Positions 3,102 to 26,487 of a stretch of 32,000 bases of DNA are shown in pieces. The position numbers and the translations under genes were made by a program. The stretch covers positions 240,001 through 272,000 of the forward strand of contig OZ245819.1 in the NCBI GenBank assembly GCA_965228485.1, written 5' to 3'. A model generated the notes under the pieces. That model was not told the origin of the DNA and ran no database searches. It saw only the letters and a program-made list of their open reading frames with translations. The number at the start of each line of letters is the position of its first letter. The stretch's first letter is position 1. This stretch comes from Candidatus Saccharimonadota bacterium. GTDB taxonomy: Bacteria; Patescibacteriota; Gracilibacteria; UBA4473.

Positions 3102-3145
3102 ATCGTGTCTAGTTTAGTATTAGACTTTCAAAAATCTATATTTTA

Positions 3146-3154
3146 TGCTATAAT
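3146..3154 (+). promoter_or_regulatory. Extended -10 promoter element (TGcTATAAT)
   Basis: TGcTATAAT at 3146-3154 lies 22 nt upstream of the ATG at 3177. This supports the 3177 start over the GTG at 3105. Confidence 0.45.
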
Positions 3155-3176
3155 TCTTAGATTTATTAAATTCATC

Positions 3177-7062: not shown

Positions 7063-7650
7063 ATGGAAGCTTATGATTTACGTGACGTTCTACAAAAAGA
7101 ACCCGAAGTACTAGAAACTTCGATTGGACGAAAACAAGCAGAATTTATCTGTGCACAAACAAATCGTCGAATATTGATTGTTACTTCTGGAATAGAAGCA
7201 CGAACTGCAGCGTTTGTCAGAAAAGGGGAGAGTGCTTTACACCTGAATGAAAATCTAGCCGCCAATGATAACCCATCAATTTCCCATGTAATAAAGCATG
7301 AAGAAAATCACTTCAAACTTCCTTGGGAGTTAAATTTTAGCTCTTTCCCTCATAATAAGGCTTGCATTTTGGCTCAGCACCTAGGTATTAGCCCTGAAGA
7401 AGTACTTGAGGATCGTTTTTGGATAGAAGGGGCCGTGGAGGCCAAGACTATCGGCGAAAAGGGAATTGATCATAATGTAGCTTATTTACATAGAGAGGTG
7501 CCAGTTTTTGAGCACCTAAATCAACTTTTTATGAAACATACAGGAAAAAGTTTTAAAGCTTTATTTATTAAAGGAAAGGAAGAAGAAATTGTTCAAAGTA
7601 TGCTGGATTTGGCCAATATTCTAGAATTAAAAGCCCAATTAGCAGCCTAG
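7063..7650 (+). CDS. Hypothetical protein
   Basis: 195-aa ORF with no family recognised. Its stop (TAG 7648-7650) directly abuts the stop of the convergent gene (7651-7653). Confidence 0.5.
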   Translation: MEAYDLRDVLQKEPEVLETSIGRKQAEFICAQTNRRILIVTSGIEARTAAFVRKGESALHLNENLAANDNPSISHVIKHEENHFKLPWELNFSSFPHNKACILAQHLGISPEEVLEDRFWIEGAVEAKTIGEKGIDHNVAYLHREVPVFEHLNQLFMKHTGKSFKALFIKGKEEEIVQSMLDLANILELKAQLAA

Positions 7651-8784
7651 CTATTTAGTTTTTATAAATCCCGCCTTTATAGCCGCTTCTTCGCTTTCGA
7701 AACACTTTTCATATTCGATTCTTTTATACCAACCAGAAAGGGGAGTGTGATAGGTTTTTACTGGATTCTTCTTGCTTCCAGAAATATTCCCTTTAATTCT
7801 ACAATCCTCATCGTAATCTTTAACTTTTTTCATTACGGTCTCCTTATGCACTATAGAGTCTAGGCACTCCTTCCAAGCGCTTGGTAATGTTCTAAAAGTA
7901 GAGTTACCACTAACTCTAAACGCTCTATTATATTTTTTATCTAGAGTATTTTTATCAAAGAACATAAGCCCCATACTTATAAATTCATTTGAAACGAGAC
8001 TATTACGGTTTGGTAAAACTCTCCAAACATGTCGGACTATAGTTTTACGTTCTAAACTTTCTGTAACATCCGGTTCTAATATAACCTTTCTTCCTTTGAT
8101 GTTTTTATTAAGCCATTCAATTCTTTTGGAATTCAAACATCGATCTAATTCTACTTTACTCGTATTAATGGAGCTTGCTGTTGCGATGTTTATAATTGTA
8201 TCATCGTGTGCCAAAAGTCTGTTTTCATCAATCACATCTTTTATCCAGGTTACTCCCGTTCCCTTCGATATGATAGAATTTTGTCTATCCAAAATCAGTT
8301 TTGCTTTGTTTAATTCATTATAGATATAACAACTGCCCCAAACTCCCAACTTACTTTTCATAGCTTGGCTTTGTAATAATAATTTTTTCTTCTCATTCCC
8401 TAAATACTTTGCCCAGCCCTGCTCTATAAAAAACTTTTTGAGATCAGTTCTCCCTTTTTTTAATTTTATATTTCCATAAATATAAAACGGACGATTTCGA
8501 ACTCTTTTGTGTTTCTTTTCTACTTCAATAAACACTGTTTGATTCTTTATATTTTGATTTACGAAATATTTTACCTGTTCCTTAAAACAGTTGGTTTCAA
8601 GATTTTCATTTGTAAAATCGACCATCTCTAAATCGTTGAAAATAAATATTTGGCCATTGTAAAGCTGCCATTTATCAGCATTAATAATGGATCTCACTTT
8701 ATAGGAATTAAAATCAGCTTCTATTTGAAAGCTTGGAAACAGGAGTAAAAAAAGGATTGTCAAAGGTGTTTTTTTTCTTAGCAT
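7651..8784 (-). CDS. Secreted protein with two degenerate thermonuclease (SNase)-like domains and a C-terminal KGNI..YH.P...Y...E.CF.SEEAA..AGF domain
   Basis: N-terminal signal peptide MLRKKTPLTILFLLLFPSFQIEA. Two regions end in SNase-like strings (FIEQGWAKY...AMKSKLGVW; EFISMGLMFF). The last 50 aa (7654-7803), CRIKGNISGSKKNPVKTYHTPLSGWYKRIEYEKCFESEEAAIKAGFIKTK, resemble the conserved C-terminal module found on many secreted nucleases. Confidence 0.45.
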   Translation of the reverse strand: MLRKKTPLTILFLLLFPSFQIEADFNSYKVRSIINADKWQLYNGQIFIFNDLEMVDFTNENLETNCFKEQVKYFVNQNIKNQTVFIEVEKKHKRVRNRPFYIYGNIKLKKGRTDLKKFFIEQGWAKYLGNEKKKLLLQSQAMKSKLGVWGSCYIYNELNKAKLILDRQNSIISKGTGVTWIKDVIDENRLLAHDDTIINIATASSINTSKVELDRCLNSKRIEWLNKNIKGRKVILEPDVTESLERKTIVRHVWRVLPNRNSLVSNEFISMGLMFFDKNTLDKKYNRAFRVSGNSTFRTLPSAWKECLDSIVHKETVMKKVKDYDEDCRIKGNISGSKKNPVKTYHTPLSGWYKRIEYEKCFESEEAAIKAGFIKTK

Positions 8785-8808
8785 GCGGCCGATTTTTTAA
8801 AAATACCT

Positions 8809-10077
8809 ATGGCTAATTACAAGACACTTCCTAAATCAAAAGTTAATTTCACCCTTAAAGTGGATAAAACTGCTATCGAAAATGCTCGAAAAACAGTTAT
8901 TCAGCACATGAAAAACCAAATTTCTATCAAAGGCTTCAGAAAGGGACACGCTCCAGATGACTACGTAGTGGCTCAAGTTGGAGTTCAGAAAATTGCTTTT
9001 GAAGCTATGAATCAGGCTATTGACAAGGCTTATGCTAACTTTATAAAAGAAAATAATCTGCAAGTTATTTCTCAGCCAGAAGTAGATATCCCGTCACCAG
9101 ATAGTGATCCTATTGAAGTAAAATGTGAGGTAGAGATTTACCCAGAGATTACCGTAGGAGATTACAAGAAAATTAAAGTTAAAAAAGAAAAAATTGAAGT
9201 TGAAACCAAAGAAATTGAAGATGTTCTTATGACCGTTTGTGCCCAAATGGAGGCAGGAGAAGAGGTAAAAAGGGCTGCAAAGAAAAATGACCTTGTAGAA
9301 GTAGATTTTGCTGGAATTGATGACAAAGGGAAAGAAATTCCAAATACAGCAGGGAAAAATATGACATTTAGATTGGGACAAGGACACTACCTTCCTGATC
9401 TCGAAAAAGCTTTTGAAGGCATGAAAGCTGGAGAAGAAAAGAAAGCTGTAAAAGTAAAATTCCCGAAAGATTATCACTCAGAGGACTTTGCAGGAAAAAT
9501 AGTCAACTTTGATGTAGCCGTTCACAAGGTAAGTGAAATTAATCCAAATAAGCTTACAAAAGAACAAATCCAACAGATCTCAGGGAAAGAACAAAGTCTG
9601 GATGAGCTTAAAGAAAGCATCAAAAAAACCATCACTCAAAATAAGACTCAAGCCAAAGAACAAGAATGGATTGCTGATTATTCAACTCAACTTGCAAAAC
9701 TTGTAAAGGCGGACCTCCCACAGAGCTGGTTAGACAGAGAAGTAAGCTCTAGGCTTGCAAGATTAAAACAAAACCCTCAGTTTCAATCCAATCCAGAACA
9801 ATTCTGGAAAGCTATGGGGAAAGATGAAGAAGTCTTTAAAAAAGAACTAGCCTCAGAGGGGGAAAAAGACCTAAAAGTTTTCCTTGGACTCTCTGAAATC
9901 GTTAAAACTGAAGGTATTACCTTAGATAAAGATGAAAAAACACAAGCACATCACATAGCACGGCAGAACATAGGTCATGATCACCATCATGGACACTCTC
10001 ATGACGTCGAAGTTGAAAAAGCTGAATTAAACCTAAAAATTGACAAATTCCTTCGCTCGACTATAATAGAAGGATAG
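8809..10077 (+). CDS. tig: Trigger factor
   Basis: N-terminal ribosome-binding signature GFRKGHAP, a central FKBP-type PPIase region (DFAG.DDKG...F.LGQG...P.LE.A..GMKAGE) and a C-terminal arm. Unusual His-rich segment GHDHHHGHSHD near the C-terminus. Confidence 0.9.
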   Translation: MANYKTLPKSKVNFTLKVDKTAIENARKTVIQHMKNQISIKGFRKGHAPDDYVVAQVGVQKIAFEAMNQAIDKAYANFIKENNLQVISQPEVDIPSPDSDPIEVKCEVEIYPEITVGDYKKIKVKKEKIEVETKEIEDVLMTVCAQMEAGEEVKRAAKKNDLVEVDFAGIDDKGKEIPNTAGKNMTFRLGQGHYLPDLEKAFEGMKAGEEKKAVKVKFPKDYHSEDFAGKIVNFDVAVHKVSEINPNKLTKEQIQQISGKEQSLDELKESIKKTITQNKTQAKEQEWIADYSTQLAKLVKADLPQSWLDREVSSRLARLKQNPQFQSNPEQFWKAMGKDEEVFKKELASEGEKDLKVFLGLSEIVKTEGITLDKDEKTQAHHIARQNIGHDHHHGHSHDVEVEKAELNLKIDKFLRSTIIEG

Positions 10078-10093
10078 AAAAACAAAAAAATAA

Positions 10094-10333
10094 ATGAAAT
10101 ACATCTACCTGGGTTTAATGACGGTTGTGGGAATCTTAGGGCTTATTGTATGCTTTGAGAACATAATGTTGCAGTCTCCTGGAATGATGATATTTTTTGA
10201 GACTATGACTGGGAGTATGTTTTGGCCTTTATTATTCATCCTCATTATGGGATTTATTTCTGGTACATTTTTTGGACTCGCATTAATGTCTGGAAAAAGT
10301 AAGAATGAAGATTTTGATGAAATTGATATTTAA
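10094..10333 (+). CDS. Small two-TM membrane protein (LapA/DUF1049-like)
   Basis: 79 aa with two hydrophobic helices separated by a short loop and an acidic tail. It starts 16 nt after the tig stop and a terminator follows. Confidence 0.5.
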   Translation: MKYIYLGLMTVVGILGLIVCFENIMLQSPGMMIFFETMTGSMFWPLLFILIMGFISGTFFGLALMSGKSKNEDFDEIDI

Positions 10334-11738: not shown

Positions 11739-13382
11739 CTAAACGTCGTTCTTTTCTCCTAAATAGGTAGTATATAAATAATTTGTTTGAGCTGGAAATT
11801 CCGCAGCCAGTGTATCTATCTGTTTTGTTACTGGCTTAATATCCGCTTTTTTTCTTAATTCATAGACTTCCTTAAAGCTTTTTTTAGTAAGGCGACCAAT
11901 TTCTTGATCAGAAAAACCTAGATTTTTAGCTTCCAGTAAATTGGTATCATTTAATCCTTCTCTTTCTAGTTTTTGAGCAAAGTCAGTAATTCGTTTAACT
12001 TGAGATAAAAACCAATGATCAATTTTAGTTAAGTCAAATATCTCTTCGGTGGTAAAATAGTTTTGATAGAGAGCCTCTGCTACAGCAAATAATCGTCTTG
12101 GAGAAGCCGTTTTAAGATTCTTTTCAATTTCTTTTTTTGAATCAAAAGAAATAGGGGAGTCAAGAATCCCATGACTTCCGATTCCGAGCATTCGAACCGC
12201 TTTTTGTACCACTTCTGGAAAATTCCGGCCTAAAGCCATAACCTCACCAACAGACTTCATTTCCGTTGCAATTTCATGACTCACTTTTCTAAATTTTCCA
12301 AGATCCCATCGAGGGATTTTCAATGCCACATAGTCTAGTGCTGGCTCAAAATAAGCCGTTGTAACTTTTGTAATGGCGTTTGGAATTTCATACAGATCTT
12401 TACCAAGCATAATCTCAGCGGCAACGGCAGCTAAAGGATATCCAGTAGCCTTAGAAGCTAAGGCAGAACTTCGACTTAGTCGAGGATTAACTTCAATCAC
12501 TCTATATTCTTCTGGATCATTAGGATTTAGGGCGTACTGGATATTACATTCTCCAATGATTCTAAGGTGTCGAATAGTTTTTATAGCAACGGTTCTGAGT
12601 AGTTGCCATTCCTGATTTGAAAGTGTCATAGAAGGAGATACAACAATAGATTCTCCTGTATGGATCCCTAATGGATCAAAATTCTCCATATTCACAACCG
12701 TGATTACATTATCACTCCCATCTCGAACGACTTCATATTCAAGCTCTTTCCACCCTCTAAGGTCTTCCTCAACCAATACTTGAGGAGAGAAGGCAAAAGC
12801 ATCTCTTACCATTCCTTCAAATTTATCAGGGGTTTCACAAAAACCAGATCCTTGCCCTCCCAATGTAAACCCTGCACGCATAATTAATGGAAATCCTATC
12901 TCTTTTGCGGCAGCTTTGGCCTCCTCCATAGAACGTGCAGCGATTGAACGAGGTGTTTTCACTTCTATTTCGGTACATTTTTGCACAAAAATCTCTCGAT
13001 CCTCAGTAGCACGAATTGTTTCTACGCTGGTCCCTAATACTTTAATTTTATGTTTTTTAAGTATTCCAGCTTCTTCAAGGTCCAATCCACAATTCAGAGC
13101 TGTTTGTCCTCCAAAGGAAAGGGCTAGAGCATCAGGTTTTTCTTTAATAATAATTCTCTCAACAAATTCTGGCGTAACGGGTAAAAAGTAAACCTTATCA
13201 GCATGAACACTCCCTGGAGAAAAAGCTTCAGGATCGGTTTGAACCGTAGCAATATTAGGATTAATCAGCACGACTTCATGACCGTCTGCCTTAAAGGTCT
13301 TAATAGCTTGAGACCCTGAATAATCAAATTCGCCAGCTTGACCAATCTTAAGTGCTCCAGAACCGAGTAATAATATTTTCAT
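11739..13382 (-). CDS. carB: Carbamoyl-phosphate synthase large subunit, N-terminal half only (carboxyphosphate plus oligomerisation domains)
   Basis: ILLLGSGALKIGQAGEFDYSGSQA, the ATP-grasp core, EVNPRLSRSSALASKATGYPLA and MKSVGEVMALGR are collinear with E. coli CarB residues ~1-555. The ORF ends at ...AAEFPAQTNYLYTTYLGEKNDV*, exactly the boundary before the second ATP-grasp half. Confidence 0.85.
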   Translation of the reverse strand: MKILLLGSGALKIGQAGEFDYSGSQAIKTFKADGHEVVLINPNIATVQTDPEAFSPGSVHADKVYFLPVTPEFVERIIIKEKPDALALSFGGQTALNCGLDLEEAGILKKHKIKVLGTSVETIRATEDREIFVQKCTEIEVKTPRSIAARSMEEAKAAAKEIGFPLIMRAGFTLGGQGSGFCETPDKFEGMVRDAFAFSPQVLVEEDLRGWKELEYEVVRDGSDNVITVVNMENFDPLGIHTGESIVVSPSMTLSNQEWQLLRTVAIKTIRHLRIIGECNIQYALNPNDPEEYRVIEVNPRLSRSSALASKATGYPLAAVAAEIMLGKDLYEIPNAITKVTTAYFEPALDYVALKIPRWDLGKFRKVSHEIATEMKSVGEVMALGRNFPEVVQKAVRMLGIGSHGILDSPISFDSKKEIEKNLKTASPRRLFAVAEALYQNYFTTEEIFDLTKIDHWFLSQVKRITDFAQKLEREGLNDTNLLEAKNLGFSDQEIGRLTKKSFKEVYELRKKADIKPVTKQIDTLAAEFPAQTNYLYTTYLGEKNDV

Positions 13383-16124: not shown

Positions 16125-17558
16125 TTATGACTTTGTCGCCTTAAACAATTGATGACTAATATTGAGTAGTCGGTCTTCCGTAAATGCTGGACTCAATAGT
16201 TGAACTCCAATTGGCAAATTATCTTTCGAAGTGGCGAAAGGAGCTGAAATCCCTGCAATGCCAGCCAAACTCGCTGGAATTGTTAGAGCATCTTCTAAAT
16301 ACATTTTGATAGGATCATCGCTATTTTGACCAATCTCAAAAGCTGGAGTAGGGGATACTGGAGCTAAAATAACATCTACGTCATCAAAAGCTTGTTTAAA
16401 ATCTTCAATCACCAATGTTCTTACTTTTTGAGCTTTTCGGTAATAATCATCATAATACCCAGCACTTAATGCATAAGTTCCTAGCATTATTCGACGTTTA
16501 AGCTCATCACCAAAACCCTGTTCCCGTGTTTCGGTATAAATTTTCTCTAAATTTTCTTCACTTACGCCGCTCCCAAATCTAATACCATCAAAACGGGCCA
16601 TGTTGGCAGAAATTTCGGACGGAGCCACAATATAGTATGTAGCCACTCCATATTGGGTATTTGGCAATGATATATCTACAATTTTAGCCCCCTGAGAGGT
16701 AAATATAGCTTTAGCAGAGTCGATAGCAGCTACCAATTCTGAATCAATCCCATCTACAAAGTACTCTTTTGGAATACCAATCTTTACACCACTTAAGCTA
16801 GCGTCTAAGTTTTTTGTATAACTTGGTACTTCTTTTTTTGGTGTGGTACTATCTTTTTTATCATTTCCAGCAATAATCTGCAAAATCATAGCACAGTCTT
16901 CAGGAGTTTTTGCCAATGGACCTACGGTATCTAGGCTTGAGGCCATGGGAATAGTTCCCCAACGAGAGACTCTCCCATAAGAGACTTTTAAGCCTGTACA
17001 GCCACAAAAATGTGCTGGTTGACGAATAGATCCTCCTGTATCGGTCCCAATACTAGCTGTACAAAAATTGGCTGCTACAGCCGCTGCAGACCCCCCTGAA
17101 GAACCTCCCGAAACACGATTCAAATCGTGGGGATTTTTTGTTACCCCAAAAGCAGAAGTTTCTGTTGAGGCTCCCATGGTAAATTCGTCTGTATTAACTT
17201 TTCCGAGTAAAACCACTCCAGCCTCTTTAAGCTTTTGCCAAACCGTCGCGTTATATGGTGGAACAAAATCTTTTAGTACATTTGAACTAGCCGTCGTACG
17301 AACCCCTTCTGTACAAACCACGTCTTTTAATGTGATAGGCATCCCATCGATCGGAGAGAGGAGTTCTCCAGCCTTATAACGACTATCTGCGGCATCGGCC
17401 ATCTCCCTTGCTAGATCAAACGTTGTCGTAACAAAAGCATTTATATCGTTATCTTTCGCTTCAATTTCACTAATAAAGGCTTCCGTGATTTCACGAGAAG
17501 TAGCTTCACCGTTTTTGAACATTTGACTCAATTCTGCGAGGGTTTTGGTAATCAGCAT
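16125..17558 (-). CDS. gatA: Glutamyl/aspartyl-tRNA(Gln/Asn) amidotransferase subunit A
   Basis: Amidase signature GGSSGGSAAAVAA...GTDTGGSIRQPA plus overall GatA collinearity. The gene follows gatC with a 2-nt gap. Confidence 0.92.
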   Translation of the reverse strand: MLITKTLAELSQMFKNGEATSREITEAFISEIEAKDNDINAFVTTTFDLAREMADAADSRYKAGELLSPIDGMPITLKDVVCTEGVRTTASSNVLKDFVPPYNATVWQKLKEAGVVLLGKVNTDEFTMGASTETSAFGVTKNPHDLNRVSGGSSGGSAAAVAANFCTASIGTDTGGSIRQPAHFCGCTGLKVSYGRVSRWGTIPMASSLDTVGPLAKTPEDCAMILQIIAGNDKKDSTTPKKEVPSYTKNLDASLSGVKIGIPKEYFVDGIDSELVAAIDSAKAIFTSQGAKIVDISLPNTQYGVATYYIVAPSEISANMARFDGIRFGSGVSEENLEKIYTETREQGFGDELKRRIMLGTYALSAGYYDDYYRKAQKVRTLVIEDFKQAFDDVDVILAPVSPTPAFEIGQNSDDPIKMYLEDALTIPASLAGIAGISAPFATSKDNLPIGVQLLSPAFTEDRLLNISHQLFKATKS

Positions 17559-17560
17559 TA

Positions 17561-17845
17561 TTACATTATTTTAGGAATTCTAACACAATGGTCTTCTATA
17601 GAATGAGGGGTACACTCAAGCAGGTCATCCTCATTCCCATCTACTTCTACTAAATCCTCTCTGACTACTTTTTCCAGCCCTGTTACCTGAGAGGTTTCAG
17701 CCACTCCATCTGTAGGAGCTGATTCCAGTACTGCAAAAAAGTCTAAAATCTTAGATAACTCCCCTTGAAACTTAGTCACTTCTGCTTCACTGAGCTTAAT
17801 TTTGGCTAATTTAGCGATGTGTAGAACGTCTTCTTGCGTTAACAT
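17561..17845 (-). CDS. gatC: Glutamyl/aspartyl-tRNA amidotransferase subunit C
   Basis: 94 aa. V.HIAKLAKIKLSE.E...F...L..IL.F...L and the position immediately upstream of gatA support the call. Confidence 0.85.
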   Translation of the reverse strand: MLTQEDVLHIAKLAKIKLSEAEVTKFQGELSKILDFFAVLESAPTDGVAETSQVTGLEKVVREDLVEVDGNEDDLLECTPHSIEDHCVRIPKIM

Positions 17846-17920
17846 GTAAATTTTTTATTTTTCGCGCCGTATTATAGAAGAAAAAATACAGGAATCCAGC
17901 TTAACTTGAGATAAATTTAG

Positions 17921-17929
17921 TGGTACAAT
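17921..17929 (+). promoter_or_regulatory. Extended -10 element (TGgTACAAT) abutting the start codon of the 755-aa ORF
   Basis: TGgTACAAT at 17921-17929. ATGs at 17933 and 17936 lie 3 and 6 nt downstream, implying a leaderless or near-leaderless mRNA. Confidence 0.4.
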
Positions 17930-17932
17930 GAT

Positions 17933-20200
17933 ATGATGCAATTGCGCGATGAAAGTGAATATTTAGAGATAGTGCCAGAGCGTTTTTTGGAAACCTGCAG
18001 AGTATTAGTTATAAAACCCTCAAAAGAAGGAAAAACTCAAATACTTACCTGTTCAAATCAGAGCAACTTGGGGAATCGGAAAGGAAAAGATGAAGATAAA
18101 AAAGGAAAGACAGAGCTCCCTGGGGGAAAGGTTTTTGATAATGATGAAGAACAAAGACTATTCTTAGAAAAAAACCCAGACCAACAAGAGGTGGATCGAG
18201 TCTTTACCGCCGCAAATGAACTAGAACAAGAAACTGGGCTCTATATCAACCCAAATAGATTTAAACGAATTAACTCTGTAGATCGAAAGATGATAGGGAG
18301 GTTTGAAAAAATTCCAGGAGTTGATCATATAAGGACTAACTTCTATCTTGTAGTATTAAACCCCGAGGAATATGAAAAGCCCCCCCAAAACTGGACCGCT
18401 CAAGAACATAGTGACGATAGGCATGAGAGGACTGCTTGGGAAGAGCTTGATTTACAAGACTTCTCTTCAGGAGGATCTTTAGACTGGTTTATTGCAAAAA
18501 ATAGTCTCTTAGAAGAAGATACTGTCGAACAGGCTGAAGCTGCCATCGCAGAACAGTTATCGGACACACGTGCAAAAGTTACACAAGTGGCTACTACTCA
18601 TAATTCCATTATCAGAGGGGCAGAAGTAACCACCTCTGATACTTATTCAAAAACAAGAGAGAAAGGAACTCAAAAGGCATCAGCCATTGACTTCAATAGA
18701 GATCAGCCACTTGATTATGAAGAATTTTGCGAAGCTTACCGCGTTCATTTTGGAACCGCTCTTGATGTTCAGGAAGTGAATAGAAATATAAAACATATTC
18801 TACAAAATTACTGCATTCCACAAGTAAGTCGCCGAGTAGCGTTTATGCAAGAGTATTCAGAAGCAAGAGGCCAAAACCCTATAGAAAATTCAAAAAGAGT
18901 TAAAAGGCATTTACAAACAATTGTTGAGAGACTCCAAACCCCCAAAGGCTTTTATCGTTTTTATACCCGAGCCAATAAATCAAAACTTGGACGTCGCCTT
19001 ATGAAATCTTTTTTTGGGTTTGGTAAGATATCCCAACTTCCATACTTTGATTATATTAATGCTTACTCTTCCCAATTTAATGGAGCCTTATCGGCTGAAA
19101 CAGAAAAAGACAATCAAACAGGACGAACTATGATTCGTGGTTTTACTCATGGAGAAAAGTGTTTCCTTGAGTTAGATTCTAATACAAAAACTACAGAGCG
19201 AATGGCCAGTAAATCTACCACAAAAGTAGAAATTGATCCTTATGATATTAAAGATATTTATCGAGCGAGAATTGTGGTCGATAGTGAGAAAAACATTGAT
19301 GAAGTCATAACTTTTCTTTGTACTAAATTTGGGAAAAAAGATAGCCAAAAATCAAATTCTTGGAAACTCGAAGTCAAACAAACCGAACGCACAAATGTAA
19401 ATGCTGATACTTCTCGAAAAGAGGTTAAAGTTTTGGGGTCATTCCCATTACCAGGCAACCCAAAGATCAGAATTCCAATCGAGATACAGATTATGACCCA
19501 AGAAAACTTTGATCAAAATGAAGCTGGGGCCAATCATCATGATGTTTATGTAGCTATTCAAACACTTGTCGAAGACTCTAGACCGACTGAAGCGATAGAT
19601 AAGGGAAGTTATGAAAGCATTATCAAAGAACTGGTAAATACGCCGAATGTTTATCGATCTTATCCTGATTACACAGAAAGAAAAAAAAGAAAATTTCAAT
19701 CACGTTTGGAACAAGAAATCAGAGAGCGAATGAGAAATTATTTTTTTGAAAGAAAGGATGGTTATTACGCCTACCAACATGTTGTAAGACTCCGAAATAT
19801 CTCTGATGTAGTAAAAAGAGAAGATGAAGCATTTCGATACATGACCGAAAAACTCAATATTGACTGCGGAACGAAACTTCATGCCCAAGACTGGAAAATG
19901 CTATTTGATAATCCAGAACAGCTAAGCCCTCAAATCACTTTTGAACGAATCGGCATGAATATTTTCAAATGGGCTGAGCGAATTTCAGAAATTAAATGGG
20001 ACGTAGATTTTGATCCAGAAATAATTATTAAATCTTTTGTTCTGCACTTGAATACTCGTTTTGTTATGGCTGATAGAGCTTTTTGGAACAAAGTTATTCA
20101 GGGCACAAAATTAAACACTAAATCGGAAAAAGGTCAATATAGGAACCTTCTTAAAGACTCTGATTTCAAAAAGATTCATGGATATAGAGGCAGATCTTAG
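17933..20200 (+). CDS. Multidomain protein: atypical Nudix-like N-terminal domain, degenerate RelA/SpoT (RSH)-like nucleotidyltransferase core, unknown C-terminal ~200 aa
   Basis: Nudix-like region (aa ~20-185): CRVLVIKP, ELPGGKV and AANELEQETGL (18215-18241; cf. REUxEExGU). RSH-like region (aa ~400-545): DIKDIYRARIVVD (19253-; cf. DxxGxRii), IPIEIQIMT (19481-19498; cf. EIQIRT) and HHDVY (19535-; cf. HxxYK). Confidence 0.45.
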   Translation: MMQLRDESEYLEIVPERFLETCRVLVIKPSKEGKTQILTCSNQSNLGNRKGKDEDKKGKTELPGGKVFDNDEEQRLFLEKNPDQQEVDRVFTAANELEQETGLYINPNRFKRINSVDRKMIGRFEKIPGVDHIRTNFYLVVLNPEEYEKPPQNWTAQEHSDDRHERTAWEELDLQDFSSGGSLDWFIAKNSLLEEDTVEQAEAAIAEQLSDTRAKVTQVATTHNSIIRGAEVTTSDTYSKTREKGTQKASAIDFNRDQPLDYEEFCEAYRVHFGTALDVQEVNRNIKHILQNYCIPQVSRRVAFMQEYSEARGQNPIENSKRVKRHLQTIVERLQTPKGFYRFYTRANKSKLGRRLMKSFFGFGKISQLPYFDYINAYSSQFNGALSAETEKDNQTGRTMIRGFTHGEKCFLELDSNTKTTERMASKSTTKVEIDPYDIKDIYRARIVVDSEKNIDEVITFLCTKFGKKDSQKSNSWKLEVKQTERTNVNADTSRKEVKVLGSFPLPGNPKIRIPIEIQIMTQENFDQNEAGANHHDVYVAIQTLVEDSRPTEAIDKGSYESIIKELVNTPNVYRSYPDYTERKKRKFQSRLEQEIRERMRNYFFERKDGYYAYQHVVRLRNISDVVKREDEAFRYMTEKLNIDCGTKLHAQDWKMLFDNPEQLSPQITFERIGMNIFKWAERISEIKWDVDFDPEIIIKSFVLHLNTRFVMADRAFWNKVIQGTKLNTKSEKGQYRNLLKDSDFKKIHGYRGRS

Positions 20201-20213
20201 TTAGAATTACTTC

Positions 20214-20606
20214 GTGAAAACACTTATTGCTGGAACCTTCGACAACTTTCATATTGGTCATCAATGGCTTCTTTGGCATGGAGTTGCGCAAAGTTCACAT
20301 CTTACGATTATTGTGGCCCGAGATATTACCGTTGAGAAAATCAAGAAAAACACACCAAAAAACACCGAACATGAAAGATTAAAACGGATACAAGAAGAAA
20401 TAAAATACATTTCTCACGTTAAAGTAAAACTTGGACGAGATGATGGTAATTTTGAGAAAACTATCACGGAAATTTCTCCTCATAAAATTATCTTGGGGTA
20501 TGATCAAGAACTTCCTGAAAAATTTATTCAGAAACACAAGGACTCAATAATTATTGAACGCCACACAGCCTTTCATCCACAGTTTTTTAAAAGTTCAAAG
20601 TTTTAA
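20214..20606 (+). CDS. Cytidylyltransferase-family (HxGH) nucleotidyltransferase, TagD/RibL/PPAT-like
   Basis: GTG start. The N-terminal AGTFDNFHIGH is the (T/H)xGH nucleotidyltransferase signature, and the ~130-aa size is typical of minimal members. It starts 13 nt after the preceding ORF, and its 3' end overlaps convergent mutL by 4 nt. Confidence 0.6.
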   Translation: MKTLIAGTFDNFHIGHQWLLWHGVAQSSHLTIIVARDITVEKIKKNTPKNTEHERLKRIQEEIKYISHVKVKLGRDDGNFEKTITEISPHKIILGYDQELPEKFIQKHKDSIIIERHTAFHPQFFKSSKF

Positions 20607-22378
20607 CGGTGAAATTTTTTATCTAAATCAGAAAAAGGTATAAACCAGTGATTTGGTCTTCCATGGGGACAAAGCAATTTCCAATCAGTTCGATCAAAAT
20701 CCAAGATCAACTTTTCCATTTCAGCACGATCAAGTTTATCTCCAAACATAACAGCGCCTCTACAAGATTTATATTCAAGAAGTTTTCGCATGAGTTGATC
20801 CAAAACATTTTGTCCAACCTGATCTTCTTCAAAAAATTTAATCATTTTTTCAAACACTTGCTCCAAGGGCTCCTCTGAGAGTAGTAATGGCATTGCTAAT
20901 ACTTCAATTGTCGTGTCGGTTGGAAATAACAATTTGACTCCTAAGTTTTCTAGCACTTTTTTGGATTCAGCTAGTAATATTATTTCTTCTTCTGAAAAAG
21001 TGAGTGTTTGTGGAATGAGTAGGTCTTGAGAATGAATATCTTGTGCCTTGTACTCCTTCCAAAACTGCTCAAATCGCTGTCTTTCATGTAGAGCATGCTG
21101 ATCAAAAAAGTAAACACCATTAGTACCTTGAGCAAGAATGTATTTGTTGTCTACTTGTCCGATAACCAACAACTCTGAATTAGTATCAACTGCTTCAACG
21201 AGAGATTCGTTGAGATCGTCAACCGGAATATCTATGTTCGTATTTCTTTCTAAATTTCTATCCGAGAAACTGAGATTTGATTTGAGTAGCGAAAATGCTG
21301 ATTGATTATTACTTCTAGGAGGGAGGGATGTTTGTGACAAAAAACTTGGTGCAAATGATCCAAGCTCTCTTGAGACACCCTCAATAGAAGAAATTACTTC
21401 CAAAGATTTAATAACCGCTTGCTTGATCCCCATAAACACTTCTCCTGGTTCAGCGAACTTTACCTCAAGTTTTCGAGGATGAACATTTACATCAACCAGT
21501 ATTGGGTCTATATCTATTTTTAATACAAAAACTGGATGCAAGTGCTTCTCTATTCCAGCACTCTGCACATACCCTTCTCTTACGGCAAAGGCGAGGCGAT
21601 GATCTTCAATACGACGATTATTCACTAATAAATATTGGTTGTTTTTATTAGCAACACCTGCCCCTGGCACACAAATAAATCCCGACACCTTAAAACCTCG
21701 AAATTCTTGTGCTACGGGTATTAAATCTGAATGAAATTTTTTTAAAACTCGTTTTACTCTCGACTCAAAATCTACATCAGCTGGATAATCTAAAGTCAGT
21801 TTTTCATCTTTATAGACTTTAAATCCCACATCAAAATGACTTAAAGCAAAACCATAAATTTCTTTTAGAATATTTTTATATTCTGTAGCTTCATTTTTTA
21901 AATACTGCAGCCTCGCTGGAGTGGGGTAAAACAAATCTTTAATCGCTACCGTTGTTCCCGTATTATGACTGGCTATTTCTAGTGCTTCAGCTTCACCAGC
22001 TTTTATTTTTATTTGATAGGCTTTATCAAATGAACGCTGCTTAGAGATCATTGTAAAATCTGAAACCGAAGACATTGCCGCCAGGGCTTCTCCTCGAAAA
22101 CCAAAACTCTGAATAGTAAACAGATCATCAACAGAATTTATTTTTGAGGTTGCATGACGAAGAGGGGCTTTTTCTAAATCTTCTTTACTTAAGCCTTGCC
22201 CATTATCCACCACCTTTATCAATCTCTTTCCTCCATTTTCTATGAATATTTCCATTTCTGTTGCTCCAGCATCAATTGAATTTTCAACCAATTCTTTTAC
22301 CACAGAAGCTGGTCGCTCAACCACTTCTCCTGCCGCAATTTGATTGCTGATTTCAGAGCTTAGTATCTTGATAACCAT
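20603..22378 (-). CDS. mutL: DNA mismatch repair protein MutL (endonuclease-type)
   Basis: N-terminal GHKL ATPase (IAAGEVVERPASVVKELVENSIDAGAT...V.DNG.G). The C-terminal endonuclease motifs are DQHALHERQRFE (DQHAx2Ex4E), SCRGAVMFGD and CPHGRP. Confidence 0.9.
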   Translation of the reverse strand: MVIKILSSEISNQIAAGEVVERPASVVKELVENSIDAGATEMEIFIENGGKRLIKVVDNGQGLSKEDLEKAPLRHATSKINSVDDLFTIQSFGFRGEALAAMSSVSDFTMISKQRSFDKAYQIKIKAGEAEALEIASHNTGTTVAIKDLFYPTPARLQYLKNEATEYKNILKEIYGFALSHFDVGFKVYKDEKLTLDYPADVDFESRVKRVLKKFHSDLIPVAQEFRGFKVSGFICVPGAGVANKNNQYLLVNNRRIEDHRLAFAVREGYVQSAGIEKHLHPVFVLKIDIDPILVDVNVHPRKLEVKFAEPGEVFMGIKQAVIKSLEVISSIEGVSRELGSFAPSFLSQTSLPPRSNNQSAFSLLKSNLSFSDRNLERNTNIDIPVDDLNESLVEAVDTNSELLVIGQVDNKYILAQGTNGVYFFDQHALHERQRFEQFWKEYKAQDIHSQDLLIPQTLTFSEEEIILLAESKKVLENLGVKLLFPTDTTIEVLAMPLLLSEEPLEQVFEKMIKFFEEDQVGQNVLDQLMRKLLEYKSCRGAVMFGDKLDRAEMEKLILDFDRTDWKLLCPHGRPNHWFIPFSDLDKKFHR

Positions 22379-22467: not shown

Positions 22468-23862
22468 ATGATAAAAAAAGAAAGCATTATCGAATCTACT
22501 GTTACGGATCTTGCCTTTGGAGGAAGGGGAATTGTTAAAATAGATGGTTTTCCAATTTTTGTAGACGGAGCTCTTCCTGGACAAGAAATTAAGCTTAAGA
22601 TAACTACAAAAAAGAGAAGATACGCTGAAGCCAAGTTATTGAAGGTATTAAAAAAGTCAGATTTAGAAATTGAAATTCCTTACCAAAATACCCCAGGGGC
22701 TCCCTGGGCAAATCTCCCAATAGAGCTTCAGAAAAAGCATAAGCAAGCACAAGTTGAAGGTCTTTTTTCTAAATTTGCCCATACAGATCTTAAACCAATA
22801 TTCGATACCTATATTGAATCTCCATTGATCTGGGAATACCGAAACAAGATGGATTATTCATTTGGTCCGACCGAAGAAACCCAAAATGAAGAAGGGGAGT
22901 GGCAACATACAGGTTTTGGTCTGGGCTCTAAAAAAAGAGGACAATTTTGGCTTGTTGAAAATTTAGAAAAAGCCTCTGGGATGTTTGATCAAGAATTTGA
23001 AGCAAAATTAAAAGATTTTAGAATATTTTGTGAAACCCTAAATTCCTCTGTTTATAACGCGAGAAAGGGGAGTGGCTTTTGGCGACAACTCGTCGTTAAA
23101 AAAAGCTTTCATGAAAATAAATTTCTTATCAACATCATTACCAATATTGATGAAGAAAATACCTTCAACTCAGAAAGTGCTATTAATTTCTTCATTCAAA
23201 ATTTCCCCGACAAAATAAAGGGCATCTATTGGACTCAAAGTGATGATCTGGGAAATGCTAATGATAAATATAAAAGTAGAGATTTACTATGGGGAGAAGA
23301 GGTTTTAGTAGAGAAAATTAATGACTTAGTATTTCAGTTAAGTATTGATTCTTTTTTCCAAACCAATCCACGCTCTGCTGAAGAATTGTATAAAAAAGCT
23401 CTCAGTTATATCGACAATAAATCTGCAATTTTAGAGCTTTTTGCCGGCACTGGAACCATTAGTCAGATAATCGCTCAAAATAATCCCGAATCCAATATTA
23501 CGAGTGTTGAGATTATTGAATCAGCGGTTCTAGACGCGAAAAAAAATGCTCAACGAAATAACATTAATCATATCAATTTTATTTGTGATGATGTAAATAA
23601 ATTCATGAAAACCTACTCTGGTAATCCACCAACCGTTGTACTAGATCCTCCAAGAGCTGGAATATCTCCAAAGGCGTTACAACGTATTGCTGATTTTTCC
23701 CCTCAAGAAATTATTTATATTTCCTGTAATCCAGCCACGCTTGCAAGAGACGCAGAAATATTGCAAAAAAATAATTTTGTGTTAGAAAAAATATCGCTCG
23801 TAGATCAATTTCCACACACAAGTCATGTTGAGTGCGTCACCAAGTTCAGACTCCAGAATTAA
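22468..23862 (+). CDS. RlmD/RumA/TrmA-family RNA (uracil-C5)-methyltransferase with a TRAM domain and no Fe-S cluster cysteines
   Basis: TRAM-like N-terminus (VTDLAFGGRGIVKIDGFPIFVDGALPGQEI), FFQTN, a SAM-binding region (ELFAGTGT), DPPRAG and the catalytic ISCNPATLARD. The positions of the RumA [4Fe-4S] cysteines are occupied by non-Cys residues (YQNTPGAPWANL). Confidence 0.8.
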   Translation: MIKKESIIESTVTDLAFGGRGIVKIDGFPIFVDGALPGQEIKLKITTKKRRYAEAKLLKVLKKSDLEIEIPYQNTPGAPWANLPIELQKKHKQAQVEGLFSKFAHTDLKPIFDTYIESPLIWEYRNKMDYSFGPTEETQNEEGEWQHTGFGLGSKKRGQFWLVENLEKASGMFDQEFEAKLKDFRIFCETLNSSVYNARKGSGFWRQLVVKKSFHENKFLINIITNIDEENTFNSESAINFFIQNFPDKIKGIYWTQSDDLGNANDKYKSRDLLWGEEVLVEKINDLVFQLSIDSFFQTNPRSAEELYKKALSYIDNKSAILELFAGTGTISQIIAQNNPESNITSVEIIESAVLDAKKNAQRNNINHINFICDDVNKFMKTYSGNPPTVVLDPPRAGISPKALQRIADFSPQEIIYISCNPATLARDAEILQKNNFVLEKISLVDQFPHTSHVECVTKFRLQN

Positions 23863-24322
23863 TTTTCAAAATATTGAAGAGGGGAGTTTAGAAAGCTATA
23901 AAATTGGAGATCTCGTCACTAGAGCAAATTTTACTTCTTTTTTTATTGTAGCAGCAGGTATTGGTCGAGGTATATCTACGCCTCAGAAGTTTTTTTTAGA
24001 ATGGGTTATAGCCCAGGGACATGTTTCTAGAGAAGTCCTACAGGATCTTGATCTCAATAGCCTTAATGAGTCAGAACAGGAAATGATTTTAAATAGTTTT
24101 AGAGGAGTAAAAAAACATGCAGAATTTTGCATTCCAGAAACATTAGAAGTCATTGAAGAAGAGTTTAAACGGATTCTTAACGAGGTAGAGTTTTCTGGTT
24201 TTAATAACTTTTGTGAAGCAGAGTTATTTCATCGAACTGGCTGGGATACTGCACGAAGAATGAAAAAATTAGTTGGAGATCTTATTAAAGAGGCTCGATC
24301 TAAACCACGTATTCTACGTTAA
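23825..24322 (+). CDS. Hypothetical protein
   Basis: 165-aa ORF. The only canonical start (ATG 23825) overlaps the methyltransferase gene by 38 nt, and the 3' end overlaps the convergent antiporter gene by 9 nt. No motif recognised. Confidence 0.4.
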   Translation: MLSASPSSDSRINFQNIEEGSLESYKIGDLVTRANFTSFFIVAAGIGRGISTPQKFFLEWVIAQGHVSREVLQDLDLNSLNESEQEMILNSFRGVKKHAEFCIPETLEVIEEEFKRILNEVEFSGFNNFCEAELFHRTGWDTARRMKKLVGDLIKEARSKPRILR

Positions 24323-25270
24323 AAAGATAAAGAATGCCCCAAGGTAAAAAGCCACTAGAATGGCCGCATTCGCTCGATTCATTTTACCATGCACGTAAAA
24401 AATCGTCATGGCAGATAAGCTGGCCACAAACCAAATTGGAATCGCTGTAAATAATAAGAAATCTGAAACTTTATATCCATGAGCCAAAACTGCCCCAATC
24501 CCAAGAGAAAATAGCGGATCGGTTATATTTGACCCTAAAAGATTTCCCAGAGATATCCCCTGTGATCGACGAATAAGCGCCATCATTGAAATTGATAACT
24601 CCGGAATGGAAGTTCCTATTCCAGAAAACAATCCTATGACGCCCTGATCAACTCCTGCTTGTTCTCCGGCATTAATCCCAATACTGAGGAGAATTTCGGC
24701 AGAAAACCAAACTAAAGCGCCTCCAAACAAAAAAGCGAGAACATTCAAGGGTAGGCTGGAAATACTTTTTCGAACGTGCCATTCTTTTCGATTCGCCACT
24801 AACAAGTAGTAGGTATAGAAAACATAAGCAAAAATGAGTAGTAATGCTTCTCCTGTCGCTACCGTTCCATCCATTCCAATCAAAAACAGAGCGATAATTG
24901 CCCCCAAAACCATTAGTGCATCTCTTTTGAATTCTTTTTTATCCCTTTTCATCACTCCTCCCACAAGAACACAAAGCCCCAAAATAAAAGAGATTTGCAC
25001 AAAACAACTTCCGACAATATTTCCCACCCCAATATCATCTACTCCACGAAGACCGGCAGAAATATTCACAAAGATTTCTGGTAAACTTGAACCAATAGAC
25101 ACAATGGTTAAACCGATAATAAGCTCTGATATACCAAACTTTCGGGCAATTCTCTTTACGCCCCAAATCACGTTTTCTGAGCCATACCACAAACCAACAA
25201 TAGCTATGACTGCGGCTAATGCCTGCATAAACCAAGGCAAAGAAAGAAGGTAATTAAAAAAAGGTTCCAT
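24314..25270 (-). CDS. Ca2+/cation antiporter (CaCA family, YrbG-like)
   Basis: ~10 TM helices with the two alpha-repeat signatures GSSLPEIFV and GTSIPELSIS. Confidence 0.85.
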   Translation of the reverse strand: MEPFFNYLLSLPWFMQALAAVIAIVGLWYGSENVIWGVKRIARKFGISELIIGLTIVSIGSSLPEIFVNISAGLRGVDDIGVGNIVGSCFVQISFILGLCVLVGGVMKRDKKEFKRDALMVLGAIIALFLIGMDGTVATGEALLLIFAYVFYTYYLLVANRKEWHVRKSISSLPLNVLAFLFGGALVWFSAEILLSIGINAGEQAGVDQGVIGLFSGIGTSIPELSISMMALIRRSQGISLGNLLGSNITDPLFSLGIGAVLAHGYKVSDFLLFTAIPIWFVASLSAMTIFYVHGKMNRANAAILVAFYLGAFFIFLT

Positions 25271-25833
25271 TATTTGATAGTATCAAGAAGTTGTTTAGAA
25301 GATTTTGCGGCCAAAATAGCAGGAGAAACTACAGGTCCATAGTTGTCACTAATATTTTCCAAGGAAACTCCACGAGATTGGAGCAAAAGCACCAAATCAT
25401 TAGGTGTACCACAAAATGTTTTTGGATCATCATCTTTTAGAGCTGAGGCAAATTGCTGCCAAGTACTATCTACAACAATCGGTCCATCTGAAGTATAAAT
25501 AGCCGTGTAACAATGATAATTTCCGCCTCGATGCTGTCCAATCTGTCTATCATGAGCGGTTACTCCATTTTCTTCTAAAAATTTGGTATTAGCCATCCCA
25601 AATTGCCTACAGAGATTAGCACGATGATAATCTTTTGTATTCATTCTGTGTCTATTCATTTTCCACCACTTTGGATCATCTATTAGCTCCGTATTTATTA
25701 GCATCATTTCCACTCTTCTTGATTCTCCTTCGTCAAGCATAGTCTGTACTTTGGGAATAAGCTCTTCTCTCGGTTGATCCAACCCCAGATAAGCATCATC
25801 TACGAATTCTTTTGGTCTTAATATCTTATTCAT
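25270..25833 (-). CDS. Hypothetical protein with a transglutaminase-like / papain-fold Cys-His-Asp arrangement
   Basis: NLC75RQFG, then NYH107CYTAIY, then VVD122STW. The spacing (C-32-H-15-D) and flanking residues resemble the transglutaminase-core pattern G.C..f...(30-45)...HaW.ev...(15)...D. Codons checked at 25609-25611, 25513-25515 and 25468-25470. Confidence 0.35.
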   Translation of the reverse strand: MNKILRPKEFVDDAYLGLDQPREELIPKVQTMLDEGESRRVEMMLINTELIDDPKWWKMNRHRMNTKDYHRANLCRQFGMANTKFLEENGVTAHDRQIGQHRGGNYHCYTAIYTSDGPIVVDSTWQQFASALKDDDPKTFCGTPNDLVLLLQSRGVSLENISDNYGPVVSPAILAAKSSKQLLDTIK

Positions 25834-26487
25834 CTACTTAAAAATTTTAAAAATTCTAGGGTTTATAGGGTCGTAAATAATTTTAACCTCCCTATTTTTT
25901 GGAATTGAATACTGATTAAAGCAGTAGTAAAAAGGCTTAACTTTAAAAGTATTTCCTTGAATATTAACTAAGTTATTACTATCAATCATAGCTTTGGCAA
26001 TAATACCATTTCGCTTAAGGCGAATATCGTAATACTTTTCTTTAATATATAGAGGTACAAATAGGGATAACAGAACAATATAATATCCAAATCTATCAAT
26101 AACTTGCTTTGGAAATGCCAATATATTTTCTAGATACCCAACTATAAAGGAAATTAAAATTAAAAAAATAAGAATCGGAAAGACTACTTTACTAGCCTCT
26201 AAGAAGTCATTATTAACACTTGAGACACAATGCTTTTTGTCATGACTCATTGATGGCTTCAAATAATTTTTATAAAGGTTATAGATAATATTTACAAAAA
26301 AAGCACAAAATAGTAACACCCAGGCTTTACCACTTACTTCTATAATATCATATTTTAAGATTAAAGAACTTTTAAATATCCTGGGATATAAGATTAATAT
26401 AAACGGATATAAAATCGAAAGATAAAAAACTGATAGCCAAAACATCCCTATATTACCCTTTCCTAAAAGCTTTTCGTACTTATTCAT
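25834..26487 (-). CDS. Integral membrane protein with a DUF3592-like C-terminal domain
   Basis: Four or five hydrophobic helices. The C-terminal soluble part ends in ...EVKIIYDPINPRIFKI, resembling the v.YdP.nP motif of DUF3592. Confidence 0.4.
   Translation of the reverse strand: MNKYEKLLGKGNIGMFWLSVFYLSILYPFILILYPRIFKSSLILKYDIIEVSGKAWVLLFCAFFVNIIYNLYKNYLKPSMSHDKKHCVSSVNNDFLEASKVVFPILIFLILISFIVGYLENILAFPKQVIDRFGYYIVLLSLFVPLYIKEKYYDIRLKRNGIIAKAMIDSNNLVNIQGNTFKVKPFYYCFNQYSIPKNREVKIIYDPINPRIFKIFK

Follow-up and report, generated by a model that had tools for sequence, protein, structure and literature searches.

The window analysed in this study is a stretch of 32,000 nucleotides (nt) from contig OZ245819.1 (positions 240,001 to 272,000 of the forward strand) of the assembly GCA_965228485.1, which represents a Candidatus Saccharimonadota bacterium placed by GTDB in the Gracilibacteria (UBA4473). 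On its plus strand, the window contains an open reading frame (ORF) of 755 amino acids (aa), in which a Nudix fold is predicted to be fused to a synthetase fold of the RelA/SpoT homologue (RSH) type, and a second ORF of 130 aa, which encodes a nucleotidyltransferase (NTase) with an HxGH motif. The 755-aa protein and its relatives, hereafter the RSH-like family, keep the ATP-donor and catalytic residues of RSH enzymes, whereas the acceptor side is changed, a pattern that suggests a pyrophosphokinase with an altered acceptor. The features of the two genes, with the evidence for each, are as follows.

17933-20200, plus strand: 755-aa ORF with a Nudix domain, a helical domain, an RSH (SYNTH-like) core and a C-terminal helical domain; ATG start, homologues and AlphaFold model.
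17972-18502, plus strand: Nudix-fold domain, aa ~14-190; Foldseek, family profile, and Pfam in relatives.
18113-18241, plus strand: atypical Nudix box, made up of ELPGGKV, an insertion of ~16 residues (extra helix, aa 71-79) and NELEQETGL; alignment and model.
18668-19162, plus strand: family-specific region, aa 246-410, with an S-x-[LI]-D motif (D253) and a basic helical domain (isoelectric point, pI, 9.6); conservation and model.
19163-19582, plus strand: RSH synthetase-like catalytic core, aa 411-550, with NxKxxxRxxxKxxxK, DIYRAR, N488...R495, IEIQIMT and HHDVY; Pfam, Foldseek and conservation.
19583-20197, plus strand: C-terminal helical domain, aa 551-755, basic (pI 9.4); alignment and models.
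20214-20606, plus strand: 130-aa HxGH NTase, similar to RibL and FAD synthetases; GTG start and matches to PF01467, TIGR00125 and 3glv.

Both ORFs were found where the initial annotation of this DNA had placed them (755 aa at 17933-20200 and 130 aa at 20214-20606, 13 nt apart), and all the motifs it had quoted were at the residues it had indicated. Those of the Nudix region are CRVLVIKP (aa 22-29), ELPGGKV (aa 61-67), AANELEQETGL (aa 93-103), FYLVVL (aa 137-142) and ERTAWEEL (aa 165-172); those of the RSH region are DIYRARIVV (aa 441-449), IEIQIMT (aa 516-522) and HHDVY (aa 535-539). GTFDNFHIGH occupies aa 7-16 of the 130-aa ORF.

The full-length AlphaFold2 model, which was built on the family alignment, reached a mean predicted local distance difference test score (pLDDT) of 86.5 and a predicted template modelling score (pTM) of 0.87. 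Its best 50 Foldseek matches in the PDB were all Nudix hydrolases, with E values from 1e-5 to 2e-3; the NrtR Nudix domain (3gz8) ranked third, and the bifunctional NMNAT/Nudix enzymes 2qjt and 2r5w were also among them. When the profile of 25 family members was compared with the PDB, the Ap4A Nudix hydrolase 5cfi was matched at E 5.5e-5, together with MutT proteins. Moreover, Pfam NUDIX (PF00293) was matched in two of three close homologues (up to 4e-4), and its cut-off of 21.1 bits was exceeded by the relatives P0016 (38.5 bits) and P0008 (24.9 bits). Profile and structure checks thus agree with the Nudix fold that had been proposed from the motifs, and the model has aa 14-190 adopting this fold.

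For the RSH core, Pfam RelA_SpoT (PF04607) gave 23.7 bits on the 755-aa protein (cut-off 27; E 6e-5) at aa 418-539, a match spanning profile positions 3-108 of 113. The same model was matched in all three close homologues, and the cut-off of 27 bits was exceeded by P0012 (35.4 bits), the protein of locus L012 (31 bits), P0014 (29.3 bits) and P0016 (28.6 bits). With the 25-member profile, RelP (6fgk) was matched at E 0.01, a putative GTP pyrophosphokinase (3l9d) at 0.022 and RelSeq (1vj7) at 0.07. A separate model of aa 240-755 had a pLDDT of 87.2, and its best 37 Foldseek matches in the PDB were all RSH synthetases, including RelQ, RelP, SAS1, RelA, RelSeq, Mtb Rel, CapRel (9erv), SpoT and an exported small alarmone synthetase (SAS). 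In a library of viral structures, RelA/SpoT proteins, phage ones included, ranked top. The RelA/SpoT assignment of the initial annotation was therefore borne out by relatives that pass Pfam and by a fold search that returned RSH synthetases only; aa ~340-570 adopt the RelA/SpoT synthetase fold in the model, and the domain is a distant, structurally diverged member of the superfamily. We are highly confident of the two fold assignments, Nudix and RelA/SpoT. The idea that the motifs were coincidental is refuted by the fold and profile evidence.

The remaining parts of the protein are helical. The segment between the two nucleotide-handling folds had been described as a linker of ~200 aa; it is in fact a conserved and confidently predicted helical domain. 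The region of aa 246-410 occurs in all members, including those without a Nudix domain, its pLDDT is mostly above 90, and D253 of the S-x-[LI]-D motif is invariant in 25 of 25 sequences. Variation within the family is greatest in the C-terminal domain. As the initial annotation had said of the last ~200 residues, aa 551-755 have no recognisable relative in fold and profile searches. No HD, TGS, ZFD or ACT domain was found in the 755-aa protein with Pfam and NCBIfam at E values up to 10. The core common to the 25 aligned members thus consists of the S-x-[LI]-D motif, the basic helical domain (aa ~260-410), the RSH core and a variable C-terminal helical domain.

Members of the family are few. 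A word-indexed set of 5.8 billion proteins yielded 3 proteins, with the protein query as well as with a 3-sequence profile, and an exhaustive HMMER search of 1.84 billion representatives yielded 28 clusters. One further, partial locus (L095) was obtained from 241 million JGI metagenome records; a scan of GTDB genomes with the pattern IPIE[IF]QIM, which misses IPVE variants, gave no match. Loci were found with GatA as the synteny anchor, and alignment and conservation refer to 25 members with a mean identity of ~20%. No name for any member was found in the sources searched, and NCBIfam has no model for the family. All members with usable context lie in genomes of the Gracilibacteria/Altimarinota type of the candidate phyla radiation (CPR), as judged from neighbouring genes and database labels. 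The GatA of this locus is 63-75% identical to those of metagenome-assembled genomes labelled Candidatus Gracilibacteria, Candidatus Altimarinota (a phylum of the Patescibacteria group) and Patescibacteria UBA4473, and ~50% identical elsewhere. The family is therefore very rare, unnamed and restricted to Gracilibacteria-class CPR bacteria.

In spite of the low overall identity, six columns of the alignment are invariant: D253, K419, R423, K427, D441 and E517. Five of them (all except D253) sit on the ATP-donor and catalytic motifs of RSH enzymes. N488, H536 and Y539 are nearly invariant in the RSH core, and Q519 and R446 are mostly conserved. In the toxSAS enzyme FaRel2, the donor ATP and Mg2+ are contacted by R64, K66, S70, K74, R77, D90, G93, R95, E145 and Q147, and the base of the acceptor by Y128 of the G-loop (PMC11782079). 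By motif alignment via RelP (6fgk), these donor ligands map to N417, K419, R423, K427, K431, D441, R444, R446, E517 and Q519 of the 755-aa protein. The acceptor-side residues of (p)ppGpp synthetases, in contrast, are not kept family-wide. The G-loop Tyr (GYxSxH) aligns with R495 in the RelP alignment, within a family-specific N-x3-D-x2-R-x-E motif; every member has M, L or I in place of the EIQIRT Arg, and the HxxYK Lys is replaced by V, A, S and others. The substitutions listed in the initial annotation, G to R in DxxGxR and R to M in EIQIRT, proved to be real and family-wide, the latter as M, L or I. Since the donor and catalytic residues are kept and the acceptor side is changed, the sequences suggest an active pyrophosphokinase with an altered acceptor rather than a decayed domain.

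The two NCBIfam models TIGR04552 and TIGR04562, which are uncharacterised, gave recurrent weak matches (E ~1e-3 to 1e-4) at aa ~497-544 in the 755-aa protein, P0003, P0008 and P0016. These matches cover the EIQI...HHxVY region, and the two models may describe another distant RSH-like family.

The Nudix box does not fit the canonical pattern GX5EX7REUXEEXGU, since ~22 residues instead of 7 precede the helix. The long spacing noted earlier between the GGK loop and the helix is genuine; it results from the insertion of ~16 residues, which is common to most relatives and absent from P0008, where the box has canonical spacing. The Nudix helix reads KELEEETGV, RELEEEIGM (P0003), EELEEESGL or RELEEETGM (P0007) in relatives, and those of P0003 and P0007 are canonical. 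E96 and E100 of this helix are invariant in the eight closest members, and the domain looks catalytically competent in the subgroup of the 755-aa protein, as far as residue conservation indicates. Members without the domain are P0013, P0015, P0018-P0026, P0030 and the proteins of loci L011 and L091. Since half of the family lacks it, the Nudix domain is an accessory part, dispensable for the family. P0025, a stand-alone Nudix protein of 224 aa from the representative search, apparently from a high-GC organism, has the same kind of insertion in its Nudix box, LPGGKVFDRHEQYEPFRENPDAVEQACRVAAARELRQETGL; as it is free-standing, Nudix domains with this insertion also exist outside the RSH fusion.

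The immediate surroundings of the two genes comprise three further features.

16125-17845, minus strand: gatC-gatA, the conserved divergent neighbour, which serves as synteny anchor and lies outside the enzyme; ORFs and locus comparison.
17846-17932, no strand: intergenic region of 87 bp between the divergent gatC and 755-aa ORF; consensus promoter match only.
20603-22378, minus strand: mutL, convergent; its stop is overlapped by 4 nt by the end of the 130-aa ORF.

The 755-aa and 130-aa ORFs are probably co-transcribed; only 13 nt separate them, and no terminator-like site was found between them on the plus strand. The minus strand upstream of the 755-aa ORF carries gatC-gatA-carA and the gene of an ABC transporter, all divergent from the ORF. 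At 17901-17929 lies a promoter-like site with an extended -10 element; identified by consensus match only, it is the sole such site upstream of the 755-aa ORF. Its TG-extended TACAAT (17924-17929) ends 3 nt before the ATG, where the sequence reads ATGATG at 17933, and no Shine-Dalgarno motif is evident ahead of the ORF. Transcription from this site would give a leaderless mRNA, unless the start codon is located further downstream.

The other genes of the window are housekeeping ones, including those for RNase H, ProRS, trigger factor, L19, a half-size CarB and a RumA-type methyltransferase; also among them are those for an Na/Ca exchanger, an ADP-forming acyl-CoA synthetase and an SNF symporter. 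No mobile-element or phage genes were found in the window. The gene for the large subunit of carbamoyl-phosphate synthetase at 11739-13382 (minus strand) encodes 547 aa with one ATP-grasp half (CPSase_L_D1, D2, D3), and the same half-size gene is present in locus L003 (548 aa); it may represent a split or half-size CarB. A 727-aa ORF at 3105-5288 (plus strand) had no Pfam match at E values up to 1e-3, nor had six smaller ORFs (295-855, 7063-7650, 7651-8784, 23825-24322, 25270-25833 and 25834-26487).

Some deposited sequences of the family are affected by the genetic code or by sequencing. P0007 (L005, 5234-7420), P0009 and P0010 were deposited with Trp at a family-invariant Gly, e.g., FPWGKVY. 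The L005 gene has 18 in-frame TGA codons, and translation table 25 restores the glycines (FPGGKVY). The three proteins therefore stem from Gracilibacteria or Absconditabacteria, which read UGA as Gly (code 25), and had been translated with code 4. The organism of the 755-aa ORF reads correctly with table 11, and UGA recoding was rejected as an explanation at this locus because its ORFs are intact under that table. The 28 window ORFs of 94 aa or more have no in-frame TGA and end in TAA (18) or TAG (10), never in TGA, while TGA makes up roughly 10-40% of stops at related loci. On this small sample, the genome seems to avoid TGA strongly, which is notable for a lineage with relatives that have reassigned this codon. 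At L001 (ENA ctg24340_2x_l, a low-coverage long-read contig on which many genes are broken), gatA, carA and a cation ATPase gene are split, and the RSH-like gene (e.g., 8001-10278) falls into ORFs of 605 and 195 aa in different frames. Frameshift errors have thus turned a single gene into the fragments P0002 (605 aa) and P0011 (141 aa).

Comparison of the related loci gave four arrangements.

gatC (divergent), RSH-like gene, NTase gene: this locus, L001, L002, L003/L014, L004, L006/7, L011, L012, L013 and L091/92.
truB, gene of a distant 657-aa relative (hhalign probability 75%, E 2.5e-5), NTase gene: L093/94.
NTase gene beside gatC, RSH-like gene absent: L010, L015 and L090.
RSH-like gene without NTase gene: L008 (divergent from gatC), L096 and L097 (both divergent from murB).

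In 10 distinct loci, the gap from the RSH-like gene to the NTase gene ranges from -4 to +47 nt. The identity of the neighbours to the copies of this locus is nearly constant: 71-77% for GatA, 53-61% for GatC, 48-56% for the NTase and 52-57% for MutL. CarA shows 54-82%, or 70-82% apart from two loci with a partial or frameshifted carA. However, the identity of the RSH-like proteins to the 755-aa protein drops from 47% to 24%, with gain and loss of domains. The slot next to gatC (L003, L008, L010-L012, L015, L090 and L091) holds RSH-like versions of 458 to 769 aa, with or without a Nudix domain, or none, and at least four architectural subtypes of the gene occur in it. Within an otherwise rigid block of housekeeping genes, the gatC slot is hypervariable.

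The 130-aa protein belongs to the cytidylyltransferase family of HxGH enzymes, as had been read from its motif: PF01467 was matched at 29 bits (cut-off 21) and TIGR00125 at 37.7 bits (cut-off 27.7), with FHIGH at aa 12-16, and no NCBIfam equivalog passes. Its best solved relative is 3glv, a 143-aa Thermoplasma protein (E 7.9e-10 over 106 residues), which we take to be a member of the clade of RibL, the archaeal FAD synthetase. Two homologues with 43-57% identity are named "FAD synthetase" by JGI. The HxGH motif and a size of ~130-150 aa are shared with RibL and 3glv; archaeal RibL has two conserved Cys (PMC11423594), whereas the 130-aa protein is bacterial (CPR) and has no cysteine at all. We infer from these likenesses that the enzyme is probably a housekeeping FMN adenylyltransferase of the RibL type. 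The initial annotation had considered it part of a candidate functional module with the 755-aa ORF. This was not supported: each gene is found without the other, the NTase diverges at a housekeeping rate, and its relatives are called FAD synthetase. An obligate module was rejected on the loci that have only the NTase (L010, L015 and L090) or only the RSH-like gene (L008, L096 and L097). We conclude that, in one sub-lineage, the NTase gene and the RSH-like gene occupy one locus and are probably transcribed together; the former is a housekeeping gene rather than an obligate partner.

Our preferred reading, drawn from conserved residues and standing at even chances, is that the 755-aa protein is a four-part cytoplasmic enzyme in which an active pyrophosphokinase of RSH fold, using a non-canonical acceptor, is joined to an accessory Nudix hydrolase acting in cis. 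The RSH domain would be ATP-dependent, its donor and Mg2+ residues being invariant in the family. The acceptor pocket appears remodelled family-wide (G-loop Tyr changed to Arg495, no Arg in EIQIRT and no Lys in HxxYK), and the acceptor is therefore probably not bound as GDP or GTP is in Rel, RelP and RelQ; this leaves another 3'-pyrophosphorylated nucleotide, or an RNA 3' end, as a possible product. In the subgroup of the 755-aa protein, the Nudix domain would most likely hydrolyse the RSH product or a related nucleotide in cis, since E96, E100 and most of the Nudix box are kept. PMC3153485 and PMC6606846 cite Thermus Ndx8 and E. coli MutT and NudG as Nudix enzymes that degrade (p)ppGpp, which makes such a role reasonable by analogy. 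The resulting order of hydrolase, synthetase and regulatory region would be analogous to the HD, SYNTH and C-terminal domains of long RSHs, and it is plausible that Nudix would stand in place of HD as the built-in antagonist. The basic helical domains that flank the core are candidates for regulatory, targeting or RNA-binding parts. A bolder form of this proposal is a new RSH-fold class, in which a pocket including N488, R495 and the D253 motif would recognise something other than GDP, GTP, ATP or the tRNA CCA end, and Nudix would erase an as yet unknown 3'-pyrophosphorylated signal or RNA-end mark, substituting for or adding to the stringent response in genome-reduced, episymbiotic Gracilibacteria; we consider this version unlikely.

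Several observations weigh against the pyrophosphokinase reading or parts of it. The 755-aa protein by itself stays under the Pfam thresholds for both NUDIX and RelA_SpoT, and for NUDIX no match was seen at E values up to 10. The structural match of aa 240-755 is modest (best E 1.4e-3, ranging to 0.4; target template modelling score ~0.4; root-mean-square deviation ~10 A). Within the conserved motifs, R446 of DxxxxR is replaced by S, E, M, K or Q in five members, and, measured against REUxEExGU, the 755-aa protein has N for R and, in the EE pair, Q for the first E. Only about half of the members possess the Nudix domain, and its box is degenerate in P0012, P0017 and P0028; a pair of making and breaking activities is therefore not the logic of the whole family, and the idea of Nudix replacing HD is weakened for the same reasons. 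Furthermore, the gene evolves much faster than its neighbours and is absent from this locus in three related genomes, which would be more typical of a conflict or accessory gene than of a core enzyme of the stringent response.

The last point leads to an alternative in which the protein is a conflict enzyme like toxSAS or CapRel. Once triggered, for instance by phage, it would pyrophosphorylate tRNA 3' ends or make a toxic nucleotide of the (pp)pApp type, with the C-terminal domain as sensor or auto-inhibitor and the Nudix domain as an antidote in cis. The RSH-like gene is indeed by far the fastest-evolving one of the syntenic block (24-47% against 48-82% identity for its neighbours), at least four architectural subtypes share one slot, and L010, L015 and L090 have none there. 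CapRel (9erv) is among the structural matches and phage RelA/SpoT proteins are the top viral ones, the basic flanking domains (pI 9.4-9.6) would suit RNA binding, and the conserved neighbours are tRNA-related (gatCA, and truB in L093). However, PADLOC gave nothing for the 755-aa protein beyond E ~1e-3 to a candidate model, and the window holds no pZFD, antitoxin-like small gene, mobile element or defence-island context, the neighbours being housekeeping genes (gatCA, FAD-synthetase-like, mutL and rumA-like). Moreover, the G-loop Tyr kept in tRNA-modifying toxSAS enzymes (Y128 of FaRel2, PMC11782079) is not kept in the RSH-like family, and members lacking Nudix would be left without an antidote. 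We regard this alternative as improbable, with a small but real chance of being right.

Two other explanations appear highly improbable to us. In the first, a compound adenylylated by the NTase (FAD-, dephospho-CoA- or NAD-like) would be pyrophosphorylated at its adenosine 3'-OH by the RSH domain and cleaved by the Nudix domain. Such a two-gene pathway would fit the close spacing in the 10 loci, the NTase gene behind the distant 657-aa relative in a different context (L093), and the existence of bifunctional NMNAT/Nudix enzymes, two of which (2qjt and 2r5w) are fold matches; it is opposed by the loci in which either gene occurs alone, by an NTase identity that stays at 48-56% while that of the RSH-like protein falls from 47 to 24%, and by the annotation of NTase relatives as FAD synthetase, a housekeeping role. 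The other explanation, very doubtful as well, takes both nucleotide folds as degenerate ligand sensors or scaffolds in a non-catalytic protein, like the NrtR Nudix domain. That domain is the third-best fold match, several canonical residues are substituted in both folds, and the 755-aa protein misses the Pfam thresholds. Nevertheless, the invariant residues of this very divergent family fall on the Mg2+/ATP-binding and catalytic positions of RSH enzymes, positions that a decayed domain would not hold at 20% overall identity, and E96 and E100 are kept in the eight closest members. The suggestion of the initial annotation that both domains are degenerate sensors is thus disfavoured for the RSH domain, whose invariant positions are donor-site and catalytic residues at 20% mean identity.

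RSH enzymes are the central stress-signalling enzymes of bacteria and, as toxSAS, growth-arrest enzymes, and the known partners that remove their products are HD-domain hydrolases. A single chain with SYNTH and Nudix domains would extend the superfamily's chemistry by a new type of built-in hydrolase and probably a new acceptor substrate. A family which keeps the donor machinery, has its acceptor pocket rewritten and is known only from CPR bacteria with genomes of 1.0-1.3 Mb would offer a handle on growth regulation in ultra-small symbionts. In addition, a hypervariable gene in a rigid housekeeping block is a candidate conflict or adaptation locus; to our knowledge, almost no such loci are known in ultra-small symbiotic CPR bacteria.

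No description of a Nudix-RelA/SpoT (SYNTH) fusion was found in the literature searched, nor anything relevant on ppGpp in Gracilibacteria or CPR bacteria, and the earlier view that the architecture is not a described family stands with respect to the databases and literature searched, which gave no named family or paper. A survey of RSH proteins from 2011 describes small RSHs as generally single-domain, with the DUF429 fusions in actRel as the exception, and Nudix comes up in it solely as a distinct ppGpp hydrolase (PMC3153485); in the 2020 update, which has 30 SAS subfamilies, neither Nudix nor CPR is mentioned (PMC7229694).

Among the known systems, RelQ and RelP (SAS1/SAS2; 2be3, 5ded, 6ewz and 6fgk) match the central domain best in both structure and sequence, and the order of motifs is common to them: a basic helix (xKxxxxxxxK), a D-x-x-x-x-R strand, an E-x-Q strand and an H-x-x-Y helix. 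However, SAS enzymes are single-domain proteins of ~200-250 aa that form tetramers, whereas the present protein, at 755 aa, adds Nudix, helical and C-terminal domains. Its Arg423 replaces the Ser of RxKxxxS, an extra invariant Asp253 motif lies upstream, and the G-loop Tyr, the EIQIRT Arg and the HxxYK Lys are replaced. The Nudix pyrophosphohydrolases (Ndx8, MutT/NudG, RppH and the Ap4A hydrolase 5cfi, which is the best sequence match) share the Nudix fold and most of the box, but differ by the ~16-residue insertion inside the box, the R to N and E to Q changes, and the fusion to an RSH domain. With toxSAS, CapRel and FaRel2, the protein has in common an RSH fold with extra N- and C-terminal elements, which in those enzymes control activity or bind RNA, corresponding donor-site residues, fast evolution and a patchy distribution; pZFD, an antitoxin gene, a defence-island context and the acceptor G-loop Tyr set those systems apart. 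Rel, RelA and SpoT, which are long RSHs (HD-SYNTH-TGS-helical-ZFD-ACT), resemble it in having an N-terminal hydrolase fold, a SYNTH domain and a non-catalytic C-terminal region, but the hydrolase here has a Nudix fold, unrelated to HD, and their HD, TGS, ZFD and ACT domains were not detected. The acceptor-site features of (p)ppGpp synthetases are missing from the 755-aa protein, but its fold and its donor-site residues place it in the RSH superfamily.

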